A DNA stretch of 33,846 bases from an uncultured Chlamydiae bacterium (GTDB lineage Bacteria > Chlamydiota > Chlamydiia > Chlamydiales > Parachlamydiaceae). Location of the stretch: the NCBI GenBank assembly GCA_963830365.1, contig CAWHMU010000023.1, positions 1 to 33,846 on the forward strand. Reading direction: 5' to 3'. How positions within the stretch are numbered: the stretch's first letter is position 1; every line of letters begins with the position of its first letter. The notes under the pieces were generated by a model that saw nothing but the letters and a program-made list of their open reading frames with translations, was not told the origin of the DNA and did no database searches. The position numbers and the translations under genes are program-made. Shown here piece by piece: positions 4,230 through 26,054 of the stretch.

Positions 4230-4475
4230 TAAACATCCAGCATCAAGAATCTTTAAGTTAGCCGTGAAAACGGCGGCGGCATGTAGCCACAGGTGAAAAC
4301 CTGTGGTAAATACATCGGCAATATCAAGCCGTGGCTACGGCGGCAGAGCGCTCGAAGACCCTGCCGCCGTAGCCACGGCTTAATCTCTTGGGCTGTGATT
4401 ACCACAGGTTCACACCTGTGGCTACATGCTGCCGCCGTTTTCACGGCTAACTCAAGATCTTGGCCTGGATGTTTA
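4230..4475. repeat. REPIN-like palindromic element (GTAG-hairpin arms)
   Basis: Arm AGCCGTGAAAACGGCGGCGGCATGTAGCCACAGGTGAAAACCTGTGG...AAGCCGTGGCTACGGCGGCAG and its inverted copy. Outer TAAACATCCAG and CTGGATGTTTA also pair. Confidence 0.85.
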
Positions 4476-15476: not shown

Positions 15477-15807
15477 CCGAATTCCAAAAAACTTAGGCCT
15501 TATGGTTGTTTGTTTCTGAGCTCCTTGGGAGCGGCCATATTTGTAGCCCATGGTGTAGCGCCAACGGCGCAAACCGTGGGTAGTAAAAAAAACAATTTAA
15601 CCCCAAGGGGGCGTTATAATTGCATTCCCGGATTTTCGTTATTGTTGATACAACCGAAGGAATTATATCGCCCCCTTGGGGCTGGCTTGTTTGTGCATTG
15701 TGACCCACGGTTTGCGCCGTTAGCGCTGCACCATAGGCTACAAATATGGCCGCTCCTCAGGAGCTCAGAAACAAACAACCGTATGGCCTAAGCCTCTTGG
15801 AATTCGG
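15477..15807. repeat. REPIN-like palindrome (15492-15792) inside CCGAATTCCAA/TTGGAATTCGG ends
   Basis: CTTAGGCC..ATGGTTGTTTGTTTCTGAGCTCCT..GGAGCGGCCATATTTGTAGCC recurs inverted at the right end; inner CCCCAAGGGGGCG and CGCCCCCTTGGGG pair. Confidence 0.85.
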
Positions 15808-19027: not shown

Positions 19028-19566
19028 GGATCATCGCATAATCGCGTACCTCCCCGTATGTAAACTAATGGAGGATGTTAAATAAATCATACAGAATGGC
19101 AAATTGCGCCTTCGATCCTTTGAAGGAAGGATTTGAGTTGGCACTGCCATACAAGAGATAGGGCACAAGCCATGAGAACATTTTTACAGCCTCGATAGAG
19201 GCGGCAGCATGTAGCCACATGCGTCAGCGTGTGGTCATCGCATGTTTAGAAACAAAGCCGTGGATACGGCGGCAGCAGTGACTAAAGGATAGTATATGCT
19301 ATAATAATTGCATCTAATTCAGCTTCCATCGAAATTGCTGTCGCCGTATTCACGGCTCTTTTTATACTACATTTTATTCCATAGGTTGACACCTATGGCT
19401 ACATGCTGCCGCCTCTATTGAGGCTAACTAGACCTTCTGTGCTAGAATGCCGATGTGTTTCAAAGAGAATATTACAAATAGATCATTACTTCTCATATTT
19501 AAACCATCAATTACTAGGGCTTTTTGACGAATCATCATGGGCAGGTACTCATTTGTACGATGAACC
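19028..19566. mobile_element. MITE with imperfect 28-bp TIRs and an 8-bp target-site duplication; same TIR family as 12101-12598
   Basis: Left end GGATCATCGCATAATCGCGTACCTCCCC versus right-end reverse complement GGTTCATCGTACAAATGAGTACCTGCCC. TCTAATAA is duplicated at 19020-19027 and 19567-19574. Confidence 0.8.
19188..19425. repeat. REPIN-like palindromic element
   Basis: Ends AGCCTCGATAGAGGCGGCAGCATGTAGCCA and TGGCTACATGCTGCCGCCTCTATTGAGGCT pair. Related to 4230-4475 and 21211-21448. Confidence 0.88.
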
Positions 19567-21201: not shown

Positions 21202-21210
21202 TTTTGCTAA

Positions 21211-21448
21211 AGCCTCGCTAGAGGCGGCAGCATGTAGCCACATGCGTAAGCGTGTGGTAACCGATTGTTTAGAAATAAAGCCGTGGACACGGCGACACCA
21301 ATGGCTGAGGTTGTTTTGCGCTAAAAATAGTTGCCTTGTATTCAGCATCGTTCGGTGCTGCTGCCGCCGTATGCACGGCTTCTTTTTTGCATGTTTATTC
21401 CATAGGTTGTGACACCTACGGCCACATGCTTTCGCCTCTAGCGAGGCT
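21211..21448. repeat. REPIN-like palindromic element, close relative of 19188-19425
   Basis: Starts AGCCTCGCTAGAGGCGGCAGCATGTAGCCACATGCGT and ends CGCCTCTAGCGAGGCT. Confidence 0.88.
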
Positions 21449-21563
21449 TATTAAAAACGTGCTAATTTCCTGTGTCCCGCCCTTGCCAAACTGCAGGGTG
21501 GCCAGTTAAGGGCAAACCGTGTATGCTGGAGTGTCTATATTTTGCTTGAACCATGATGGGAAT

Positions 21564-22452: not shown

Positions 22453-24060
22453 ATGCACCACCCACATCCTTTTGAGAAATTCCTACAAACTTTCGCGCCG
22501 GCCGTGGCACATAAGTCGCGTCAGCTAAACAAGGCCGTATGGCTGTTAGAGACCACGGGCGCATCCGATGCCGCCGATTTAAAGGCCGAGCTGGATGCCG
22601 AATGCCGCCTGCTGTTTCATGATGCCGCCACCTATCAAAAGCTGCTGGCGTGGGATGGCGATGCTGCCATTACAGATGCGCAGCTTAAGCGGCAGCTGAA
22701 TGTGCTGATCCGCGCTTTCAAGCAAAATCAGCTCCCCAAGGCGCTGGTCGAAGAGATCGCGCAGAAAGAAGCGGCGCTTTCCCAAGCCTATGCCGGCTTC
22801 CGCGCCGAATTTGAAGGGCAGGCAGTCTCGGAAAACGAGATCCTGGCCCTCTTGAAAAAGGAAAATGACCCCCGCAGGCGCAAAGCGGTATGGCAGGCTT
22901 CAAAATGCATCGGCGACATCCTGGCGCCGCAGATCCTTGCGCTGGTCGCCTTGCGCAACCAGGCGGCCAAAAGCTTGGGTTATAGCGATTATTTCCAGTT
23001 GCAGTTAAATCTGCAGGAGGTCGATGGCAACTGGCTGACAGAAACTCTAGAAACCCTCATGCAGCGCTCCGATGACGCCTATACAGCCATACTTGGTGAA
23101 ATTGAAAGGCAGCAGGCCGAGCGTTTCGGCGTCGCTATCTCTGAGCTTGAGCCTTGGGCCTGGAGCGATCCCTTTGGCCAGGCCGATCCGCTCGGCACGC
23201 TTGAGCTTGACGCTTTGGTGACAGGCGTCGATCTATCTTTGGCCGGCGCCGCCTTTTACCAGCGCATCGGCATTGATGTGCAGCCCATTTTGGAGCGCAG
23301 CGATATGTACGAGCGTGTCGGCAAAAATCAGCATGCCTTTTGCATCAATATCGACCGTGGTAATGATGTGCGCACGCTGAATAATGTGCAGCCCACCATC
23401 AAATGGCTAGAAACCGTGCTGCATGAACTCGGCCATGCCGTCTATGAGCTGGGGTTTGCTGACGATATGCCGTGGCTGTTGCGCGAGCCGCCGCATATGA
23501 TCACGACGGAAGCGATGGCGCTTTTGGCCGGCCGCCAAGCCTATCGAAAAGATGCCCTCGCACGACTGACGCCATCTGCCAAAGCTAATGAACCGCTGAT
23601 GCAGACAGCCGCGCACAGCCTTAGGCGGCGCCAGCTGATTTTCAGCCGCTGGGTACTGGTCATGACGGCCTTTGAGCGCGAGTTGTATCGCGATCCCAAA
23701 CAGGACCTCAACCGCCTATGGTGGGAGTTGGTGGCTAAATACCAAAAGATTGCCGCACCCAAGGGGCGCGCCGGCAAAAACGACTGGGCGGCCAAATACC
23801 ATATCGGCCTGGCGCCGGTGTATTATTTTAGTTATCTGCTGGGGGAGATGTTTGCCTCAGAGATCGAAGAGATGCTGATGAAAGAGACCGGTTCCTACGA
23901 TTTTGCCTCGCCGCTTGTCGGCAATATCTTGCAGCAAAGGCTTTTCCAGCCCGCCAACAGCCTGAGCTGGCCGTCGCTGATCAAACATGTCACCGGCCAG
24001 CCGTTGAATGGGGAGGCCTGGCTCCGCCAATTCGCCAGCACAAGCACAAAAAACTGCTGA
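22453..24060 (+). CDS. M3/M2-family zinc oligopeptidase
   Basis: LRNQAAKSLGY, HEXXH motif VLHELGH, downstream TEAMA, and HIGLAPVYYFSY. Confidence 0.9.
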   Translation: MHHPHPFEKFLQTFAPAVAHKSRQLNKAVWLLETTGASDAADLKAELDAECRLLFHDAATYQKLLAWDGDAAITDAQLKRQLNVLIRAFKQNQLPKALVEEIAQKEAALSQAYAGFRAEFEGQAVSENEILALLKKENDPRRRKAVWQASKCIGDILAPQILALVALRNQAAKSLGYSDYFQLQLNLQEVDGNWLTETLETLMQRSDDAYTAILGEIERQQAERFGVAISELEPWAWSDPFGQADPLGTLELDALVTGVDLSLAGAAFYQRIGIDVQPILERSDMYERVGKNQHAFCINIDRGNDVRTLNNVQPTIKWLETVLHELGHAVYELGFADDMPWLLREPPHMITTEAMALLAGRQAYRKDALARLTPSAKANEPLMQTAAHSLRRRQLIFSRWVLVMTAFERELYRDPKQDLNRLWWELVAKYQKIAAPKGRAGKNDWAAKYHIGLAPVYYFSYLLGEMFASEIEEMLMKETGSYDFASPLVGNILQQRLFQPANSLSWPSLIKHVTGQPLNGEAWLRQFASTSTKNC

Positions 24061-24104
24061 TGCCGCTGAAAGATATATTTAGACATGAAAAGACATCATT
24101 GTTT

Positions 24105-24127
24105 GTAGCGCAGATTTCAGTCTGCGT
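24105..24127 (+). repeat. GTAG-type REP
   Basis: GTAG followed by the hairpin CGCAGA-TTTCAG-TCTGCG. Inverted relatives lie at 25316-25338 and 25407-25428. Confidence 0.7.
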
Positions 24128-24162
24128 CTGTAGTTTATATGTTTCTTAAGACTTTTTGTCTG

Positions 24163-24925
24163 TGCTAAGTCCGGAGCGTATGCGGAGGACGTTTGCTAAT
24201 AGCCCACCGTGACTGAGCGATTAGCGAAGGAACGGTGGGGACGGCCCAAAGTTTCATCGAGCCCGGAGCGGAAGCGAAGGGCGATTGATTTCATGCAGAT
24301 CACTCTTGCATCCAAGTCGTGCCCCATTGACGATTCAATAGTTCAATTTCATCATCGAAGGATTTTAATTTATGATGCTCCTTTTGATTTTCAATATATC
24401 TTCTAATTTGTTCTACATGAGATTTTGAACTAGAGAATCCTCCGTACCCTTCTTGCCAAGAAAAACTTCCAAATCCCTCTTTTTTAATCCATGAAGTACT
24501 GTATGACTTCACTTCTTTCACCAACGTGCTCAAGGCTATAGCAGGATGAAGATTTAATAGTATATGTATATGATTATCGGTTCCATTAATTTGTAAAACA
24601 GGGGATTTGCTTTCTCTAGAAATCCCACACATATATTGATGCAAGCGAGTTTCAATTTCCATCGGGATTAAAGAGGATCGATCTTTCGTTGCAAAAATTA
24701 TATGAAGATAATTCTGAACACAACTATGAGCCATATCCTATCCACGTAAAGAATTCGCTAATGTATCAACAGCTCAAATTTCGGTCCATTAATATCGAAT
24801 CAATCGCCCTTCGCTTTCGCTCCGGGCTCGATAAAATTTTGCTCTATTCCCACCGTTCCTTCGCTAATTGCTCATTCACGGTGGGCTATTAGCAAACGTC
24901 CTCCGCATGTGCTCCGGACTTAGCA
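24163..24925. mobile_element. HUH transposase gene bracketed by 128-bp inverted repeats (24163-24290 and 24798-24925)
   Basis: TGCTAAGTCCGGAGC...GAAGGGCGATTGATT recurs inverted as AATCAATCGCCCTTC...GCTCCGGACTTAGCA. Confidence 0.88.
24300..24734 (-). CDS. tnpA: IS200/IS605-like Y1 (HUH) transposase, RAYT-like
   Basis: Motifs HIIFATKDR, HUH NHIHILL, WQEGYGGFS and catalytic Tyr in RYIENQKEHH. No tnpB is present. Confidence 0.93.
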   Translation of the reverse strand: MAHSCVQNYLHIIFATKDRSSLIPMEIETRLHQYMCGISRESKSPVLQINGTDNHIHILLNLHPAIALSTLVKEVKSYSTSWIKKEGFGSFSWQEGYGGFSSSKSHVEQIRRYIENQKEHHKLKSFDDEIELLNRQWGTTWMQE

Positions 24926-24980
24926 TACACATGCACAAGATCTCAAGAAACCTATAAACTATAGAGCACAGGTTAAAACC

Positions 24981-25384
24981 CAATGTCGTCAAAATAAGGT
25001 GTAAGATATTTAAAAAGAACAGGATGTAAGGATGGTTAGGATAAATCAGCATCCTGTCCATCCTAATATCATGTTATTTTTTTGACCGAATATAATTGTT
25101 GAAATGGAGAACACAGCCTTAACGAGTGTGCAAAGTGATTTTGCAAATTTCATGAATCAAGGTGTTGCATTTATGAAGTATTTCGATCGCCGTTTTTAGA
25201 TTTAAAATGAGATCTGATCTTCAATTTCTCTTTTCGTAAGATGTGGATCATCGTTTACATTACTTGCGGGTTAAAACCCGCAAAAACGGACCCAGGTTAA
25301 AACCTGAGGTAACAAACGCAGACTAAAGTCTACGCTACATTATGAGGGATAAAACCTAATTTCTATTTTATTTTGACGACATTG
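24981..25384. mobile_element. MITE with perfect 17-bp TIRs and a 10-bp target-site duplication (IS4-like ends)
   Basis: Ends CAATGTCGTCAAAATAA and TTATTTTGACGACATTG. GGTTAAAACC is duplicated at 24971-24980 and 25385-25394. Confidence 0.88.
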
Positions 25385-25538
25385 GGTTAAAACCTCTGCA
25401 AACAAGCGCAGACTGAGGTCTACGCTACAAGCGCGGGGCTATCAAGAAATTTTAATCAAAAGCTCTCTGCAATCTTTATAAAATCTTTACTTCTTTGGCT
25501 TATAGTTGGCAGAAATGCACAACCTTAAGGAGAAAAAG

Positions 25539-26054
25539 ATGTCAGAAACAAGAACTCGGGTTTCCGGGGATTATATAAAACCGGCCACCTGTCCAATCAA
25601 TCCACAGCCAAGCTGGAGCACGACGACGCGTACGCGCGTATCGGACGATTATGTAAAGCCCAGCACCTGCGCGCCAATCTACACGCAACCGGGATGCGCA
25701 ACGACGACGCGTACGCGCGTATCAGGCGATTATGTAAAGCCAGCAGCCAGTTCATTTTCGGGCAGATCATATTATCACACCCCATGGTGGGGCTGGAGCC
25801 GGCCGGTGGTGACGCCTAGTTATGATCCGGTGGTTGTTAACGCCGGCCATAAAACCTTAGCCGATGTTGTGGCAAGCGTTATCATTGTCGGTGCCGTCAC
25901 GGCCCTGGCCATCGCCGTCTTAGGCATCGCGTCTTCAAATACAGGACCAATTCCATCATATGTACCGTCTTATGTGCGTTGCCATATCGAAGAGGTGTGC
26001 CACTATATAGGGTACGGAATGAAAGAGTGTCACGAGGAAGAAGTTTGCAGCTAG
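25539..26054 (+). CDS. Hypothetical membrane protein with three TRTRVSxDY[IV]KP repeats
   Basis: RBS AAGGAG; repeats spaced 26-27 aa apart; hydrophobic segment VVASVIIVGAVTALAIAVLGIA; Cys/His/Glu-rich tail. Confidence 0.75.
   Translation: MSETRTRVSGDYIKPATCPINPQPSWSTTTRTRVSDDYVKPSTCAPIYTQPGCATTTRTRVSGDYVKPAASSFSGRSYYHTPWWGWSRPVVTPSYDPVVVNAGHKTLADVVASVIIVGAVTALAIAVLGIASSNTGPIPSYVPSYVRCHIEEVCHYIGYGMKECHEEEVCS

Follow-up and report, generated by a model that had tools for sequence, protein, structure and literature searches.

The tnpA Locus

The window, by which we mean the whole 33,846-nucleotide stretch analysed here, comes from an uncultured Chlamydiae bacterium of the Parachlamydiaceae (genome G000) and lies on contig C23. 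It contains a tnpA gene for a Y1 (HUH) transposase, set between two long inverted arms, each built from three hairpins (Table 1). As the earlier note had it, no tnpB accompanies tnpA. The neighbours are a gene for a peptidase of M3/M2 type, which ends at 24060, and an ORF of 182 amino acid residues without a Pfam match (25506–26054), which encodes three peptide repeats of the TTTRTRVS type and a hydrophobic C-terminal segment. A promoter scan returned three sites where 4.3 are expected and is uninformative.

Table 1. Features of the hairpin-armed tnpA unit and of the host repeat around it (window positions).
Feature	Position	Strand	Description
Host repeat, first half	24103–24126	+	GTAG-footed hairpin of another family
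Left arm	24127–24290	+	Downstream of tnpA; from outside in: terminal extension of about 40 nt (starts TCTGTAG-TTTA), A, B, A'
Hairpin A, left arm	24168–24191	+	AG foot, GTCC/GGAC stem, enlarged G/A-rich loop
Foot and hairpin B, left arm	24199–24239	+	ATAG foot, 8-bp stem
Hairpin A', left arm	24260–24283	+	GCCC/GGGC stem, inner GC-GGAA-GC mini-hairpin
tnpA	24300–24734	-	Y1/HUH transposase, subclass 1.2; 144 aa; GC 35%; Pfam Y1_Tnp, E 5.5e-26
Right arm	24798–24965	-	Upstream of tnpA; from outside in: extension (starts TCTATAG-TTTA), A, B, A'
Hairpins, right arm	A 24920–24897; foot and B 24889–24849; A' 24828–24805	-	
Host repeat, second half	24966–24997	+	
Partner arm of the host doublet	25368–25430	-	Intact; in-window picture of the empty site

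The two 128-bp arms first described, 24163–24290 and 24798–24925, are identical at 116 of 128 positions, and their hairpins follow the order that had been claimed, A, then a TAG-footed B, then A', mirrored on the minus strand. The inverted repeat reaches further outward, to 24127 and 24965; over its 168 columns the identity is 87% and the score 199 bits, whereas 50 shuffled versions of the surrounding 3 kb scored 34.6 bits at most. The foot of hairpin B is ATAG in both window arms and NTAG or NNAG across the family, and the family alignments show no variation in an AGCC at this foot. Folding by itself exceeds chance only in part: z is -3.5 in the right arm and -0.9 in the left one.

Elsewhere in the window, there are four gene-less inverted doublets of three-hairpin arms, at 4257–4451, 15516–15768, 19185–19428, and 21208–21451. 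GGAT-rich units form a palindrome at 25012–25081, and related copies of it are numerous across the genome.

The TnpA Protein

The catalytic motifs are intact, as stated in the earlier note: H55, H57, and Y113 are invariant in a 27-row alignment. The motifs read H55-I-H57 (HIH), WQ, and YIENQKEHH with Y113, and in front of the HUH motif stands N (NHIH) instead of the D of most relatives. In the fold prediction (pLDDT 90), the best matches are the TnpAs of ISDra2 and IS608, which are also the nearest solved sequences. Helices at 117–137, after the catalytic helix, form a short C-terminal extension in the prediction, and there is no HTH tail.

The proposed membership in the RAYTs does not stand. 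The protein scores 70 bits against the NCBIfam IS200 model NF033573 (cut-off 55) and has no match to the RAYT model NF047646 at E<=1, the reverse of the pattern given by the E. coli RayT control, which scores 179 bits on NF047646. The RAYT motif Y---NP is absent. An overlay of monomers gave an rmsd of 3.1 for RayT and 7–8 for IS608, but the E-value was worse for RayT, and the closer kinship that it might imply was discounted. In a 63-row tree, the window TnpA falls on the class-1 side, in a 99/99 clade of nine proteins, all chlamydial, and the five class-2 rows branch off with a support of 93/92, on long branches and with a bootstrap that had not fully settled. The four IS605 TnpAs of this tree group by themselves with a support of 100/100. 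With its long inverted arms, its lack of tnpB, and its own clade, the element is not a canonical member of IS200/IS605, as the earlier note had held.

Judged by published motifs and the 63-row tree, the protein is a TnpA-Y1 of subclass 1.2. Quentin et al. 2018 (PMC6006769 / 10.1101/279083) list this subclass with "REP: no", without IS properties, and mainly in Cyanobacteria and Bacteroidetes. As described there, it shares with the window protein H-I-H, WQ, and Y---Q--HH, a length of about 148 residues (144 here), and a short C-terminal extension, together with low copy number, divergent paralogues, and no tnpB. What differs from that description is the presence here of long inward arms, of duplicates bounded by arms, and, in relatives, of gene-less cognate repeats, and the Chlamydiota as hosts.

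The Arms Accompany the Gene across the Family

This TnpA family is present in 49 of 400 Chlamydiota genomes, and in 20 of the 46 that belong to the window's family. Homologous loci with both flanks number 163, of which 127 are non-redundant, and 122 of these encode Y---Q--HH. By a strict stem detector, 29 of the 127 have an inward arm upstream of the gene and five an outward one; downstream, the numbers are 32 and two. The detector gave no arms inside genes and 0–1 in 92 distant windows.

A covariance model, R1, was built from 25 arms, the window arms being excluded, and was applied to 75 of 80 GTDB loci (the five with short flanks were left out). R1 matches both window arms, the left at 24165–24285 (+) with E 4.8e-5 and the right at 24803–24923 (-) with E 3.6e-7, and both point inward toward tnpA. 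Of the 66 loci outside the training set, 45 have an arm no more than 300 nt from the gene, and R1 found none at the other 21. The nearest arm is inward rather than outward in a ratio of 34:2 upstream and 33:8 downstream, the weakest and partial rows not being tallied. Homologues from Acidobacteriota, Planctomycetota, Verrucomicrobiota, and Bacteroidota have the same arm at their side; the hairpin-armed system is not special to chlamydiae.

These observations bear on one alternative, that an ordinary insertion sequence of the IS200 type landed between pre-existing repeats. It would suit the score on NF033573, the kinship in sequence and fold to IS608 and ISDra2, and the existence of deleted copies (see below). 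Against it, the arms move together with the gene and differ between lineages, they keep their inward orientation across phyla, the enzyme stands apart from the IS605 TnpAs, and the element is not high-copy. We regard this alternative as largely refuted.

The stems covary, with six of the eight pairs of helix B changed on both sides, a figure that is partly circular since the arms had been chosen for perfect stems. The two strands of an arm are not equivalent. G.T wobble pairs number 14 on the A-B-A' strand and none on the opposite strand (three families, the copies of which are not independent). Short GNA or GNNA loops number 57 on the A-B-A' strand and one on the other, in 43 arms. Hairpins of the type GCGNAGC/GCGNNAGC are described, in the portion of PMC13037366 consulted, as extraordinarily stable DNA mini-hairpins. 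As read from these sequences, the asymmetry of wobble pairs and loops fits a single-stranded DNA that is read on one strand.

Relation to the Acido-Lenti-1 RNA

The reverse complement of hairpins A and B, as found in the arms of relatives, is the Rfam family Acido-Lenti-1 (RF01687). Of 20 homologous loci, three have arms that match it above its cut-off, with ten matches between them, on the opposite strand. RF01687 has no match that reaches the gathering cut-off in the window segment 24000–25600, likely because of the enlarged loops of the window arms, which are tied to Acido-Lenti-1 through R1. The Rfam search of this segment gave five weak matches (E 0.64–4.1), none near its cut-off.

The arms could then be genes for small RNAs, or other RNA elements, as Acido-Lenti-1 is catalogued, with their position beside tnpA being secondary. 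Rfam classes RF01687 as an sRNA, Table 1 of Weinberg 2010 (PMC2864571), the part that we draw on, marks it "probably RNA", and GNRA loops and G.U pairs suit RNA too. However, the wobble pairs and GNA loops point to the strand complementary to the Rfam model, tnpA has one arm per strand around it, and the doublets and arrays behave as repeats. We hold an RNA role to be improbable as the explanation of the arms.

Copies of the Whole Unit

A second copy of the window unit, at C25:2991–3565, is internally deleted: it retains the two arms together with a remnant of the gene, its 3' part, at 92% identity. This copy and its site are known from the assembly alone. Arms on the same side of the two elements are 94.0 and 93.9% alike, and the two arms within each element are 89.0 and 89.4% alike. 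Since same-side arms are closer to each other than are the arms within each copy, the C23 and C25 copies descend from one unit. Two metagenome contigs, L129 and L131, carry copies that are 95–96% identical in amino acids, both damaged; their flanks are unrelated, and the terminal extension is common to both. In two other chlamydial genomes, the duplicated stretch sits on separate contigs and extends as far as the arms or slightly past them (G002, 640 bp, 95%; G412, 839 bp, 89%). Among the sequencing runs listed, three DNA runs contain this DNA as a small share, and no RNA run does; the contigs from these runs do not span the element, and neither an empty site nor a circle junction was seen in them. 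One short contig skips 24341–24651 at a 9-nt microhomology, which hints weakly at another, third deleted form.

Such close copies are few. Among the within-genome paralogue pairs of 23 chlamydial genomes, 6 of 91 are at least 80% identical, three being neighbouring duplicates and three lying on different contigs, and 85 are below 80%. Most within-genome paralogues are old. The low GC of the window gene was considered as a sign of recent arrival and was ruled out, as it is common to the other subclass-1.2 genes of G000 (38–40%). In 849 plasmid records with a match, only two of the matches listed are at 40% or more, both on replicons larger than 600 kb, and no close relatives were found on phages, where the best match is 31%.

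Alternatively, the unit could be a fully domesticated REPtron that does not jump. Its second copies would then stem from abundant hairpin repeats that recombined or underwent conversion, or from the action of another Y1 enzyme of the genome. The low copy number with divergent paralogues, the chlamydia-only clade, and the imprecise junctions agree with this, as do the nine Y1 matches in G000 and the near lack of close relatives on plasmids and phages, which the portion consulted of 10.1101/2021.07.10.451892 gives for RAYTs as well. Yet in three genomes (G000, G002, and G412) the duplication runs to the arms or slightly past them and ends there, near-identical copies lie in unrelated flanks, and the arms of host and element are too different for ordinary homologous recombination. 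We consider a domesticated unit unlikely, though less so than the two alternatives above.

Insertion Sites and Ends

The C23 element splits a GTAG-hairpin repeat, uninterrupted paralogues of which lie at C45:14956, C43:12946, and window 25428(-). In these paralogues, the first half is followed by a 7-nt spacer and the second half; the spacer, CTYGTTT, has no exact match to the letters at the C23 junctions. The C25 element lies directly after a GTAG foot, inside an arm of a three-hairpin family of 171 copies. A direct repeat of 14–17 nt accompanies the C25 insertion, and none is seen at C23. The search for empty sites that the earlier note had suggested was answered with paralogous sites, and no orthologous one was found.

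Five of eight mapped ends read CTRTAG-TTT (both of C23, one of C25, one of L131, and a lone end at C42:41761), and the remaining three read ATGTAG, CATAG, and CATGG; the ends of L129 are CATRG, not CTRTAG. The junctions are fixed only to within a few bases, and the C of the CTRTAG ends may belong to the element or to the target. The guide rule of IS608 was tried for the cut site, and no position fitted all ends. The lone terminal motif of G000 at C42:41761 stands directly behind a hairpin of another arm family and is possibly a scar.

Gene-Less Arms

The earlier note took the unit for a master element of dispersed repeats. The genome-wide count of arms in the G000 assembly (82% complete) speaks against this for the window's own genome: only four cognate arms were found, all on the C23 and C25 elements, and no gene-less copies. 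In the nearest relatives, the idea does hold. Gene-less matches to the arm, mostly inverted doublets, number at least 65 in G018, a genome of the same family as G000, at least 128 in G234, and at least 74 in G299; with 40 candidates scored in each genome, these are floors and not copy numbers. A further relative, G013 (57% complete), has eight gene-less loci of the window arm type, and its three tnpA genes bear other arms. A phylum-wide DNA search with the arm gave matches in 5 of 401 genomes, G000 included, none of them close enough to add junctions.

G000 has four intact, mutually divergent loci of subclass 1.2 plus one remnant. For two of its other subclass-1.2 genes, the respective arms occur at 29 and 33 loci; for a third, the arms at the gene itself are the only ones.

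A Proposed Mechanism

We propose that the locus is a hairpin-armed unit of a subclass-1.2 Y1 (HUH) enzyme which binds its arms strand by strand, cuts near RTAG-marked ends, and copies gene-less arms often and the whole unit occasionally, likely by preference into other hairpin repeats. We think this account probably correct. TnpA would bind one arm per DNA strand once that strand is exposed; as there is one arm per strand, either strand could be processed. Cutting would take place near the RTAG-marked ends. The gene-less arms would then be copied often, and the unit of gene plus arms only occasionally, with insertion likely by preference into other hairpin repeats. Binding of a footed hairpin, 5'-phosphotyrosine chemistry, and strand transfer are supposed by analogy with IS608, ISDra2, and TnpA-REP of E. 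coli. Under the REP rule, by which A and G of the foot select C and T (PMC3479197, in the part drawn upon), the AG foot, being invariant, would direct the cut to C^T.

The window unit likely represents an intermediate, still mobile, on the path from IS200 transposons to REP systems that have been tamed. A broader proposal, which we put forward only tentatively, is that subclass-1.2 elements at large are living intermediates on the way from IS200 to RAYT/REPIN: symmetric single-strand transposons that still move their own gene, recognise a strand-specific three-hairpin DNA end (the Acido-Lenti-1 "RNA" of Rfam), insert at the RTAG feet of sister repeat families, and seed lineage-specific populations of gene-less doublets. 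The C23 element might then be a recent arrival that precedes such a population.

Comparison with Known Systems

By analogy, the unit may work like a REP-type system, as the earlier note held, in having inverted footed hairpins on both flanks, even though its enzyme is not a RAYT. Going by what we draw from PMC3479197 and 10.1101/2021.07.10.451892, REPtrons (RAYT/TnpA-REP with REP/REPIN) likewise have a HUH-Y1 gene of low copy number between inverted hairpins with feet, each with a single active strand, and are rare on plasmids; their lineage-specific gene-less doublets have counterparts in the nearest relatives of G000. In contrast, the window enzyme is class 1 and RAYT class 2, the unit has three hairpins over 90–165 nt whereas a REP, in those sources, is a short single hairpin, and RAYT genes are said there not to transpose, whereas the arm-bounded second copies of G000, G002, and G412 are signs of gene copying.

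The TIRtrons (TIRYTs), so far as we draw on Di Nocera 2013 (PMC3733652), also have a Y1 gene between long terminal inverted repeats, some of which are self-complementary and some of which form dispersed families; an overlap with the window arms is possible. In the portion of Quentin (PMC6006769 / 10.1101/279083) consulted, all 26 TIRYTs are class 2, with 20 in subclass 2.1 with HTH tails. The window TnpA, by contrast, is not class 2 and is without such a tail.

With IS200/IS605 (IS608, ISDra2), the unit shares the fold, the catalytic motifs, and deleted non-autonomous derivatives, and it differs in its symmetric inverted ends, absence of tnpB, low copy number, and separate clade. The small subterminal hairpins, high copy number, and near-identical copies of subclass 1.1 (IS200/IS605) are not features of the window element.

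If the proposal is right, a TnpA subclass published as having none would gain cognate DNA substrates and a likely activity, an abundant orphan "small RNA" of Rfam would be reassigned as a DNA end, and the proposed transition from IS200 to RAYT could be put to the test on an enzyme that seems to perform both functions. Large populations of REP-like repeats are also present in several environmental chlamydiae. In the literature covered, mostly as titles and abstract openings, we found no report linking subclass 1.2 or Acido-Lenti-1 to three-hairpin arms or describing such arms in chlamydiae. New at the window locus are the mapped ends, the interrupted host repeats, and the arm-bounded gene duplicates.

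Other Repeats and Y1 Genes of the Genome

The 171-arm three-hairpin family of G000 has many near-identical doublets spaced by 213 bp and includes a tandem array at C18:90–1363; its cognate tnpA was not found in the assembly. In another tandem array, at C16:73753–79012, a doublet of C45-family arms recurs 14 times, roughly every 360–400 bp. Four long class-2 Y1 proteins of 301–332 residues with an HLNP motif (C20:43615 and 48594, C28:30322, and C17:28013) probably belong to subclass 2.1. Single ORFs of about 290–307 residues with two fused Y1 domains are found at C45:169619–170494 of G000, with doubled arms on both sides, and at C2:38729–39598 of G019. Finally, a group II intron-like element is present in three copies in G000 (C43:17887, C45:171773, and C46:73434), encoding an identical reverse transcriptase of 419 residues (YADD). 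All three copies interrupt hairpin B of a C45-family three-hairpin arm, each at the identical base, and the element appears to home into these repeats.
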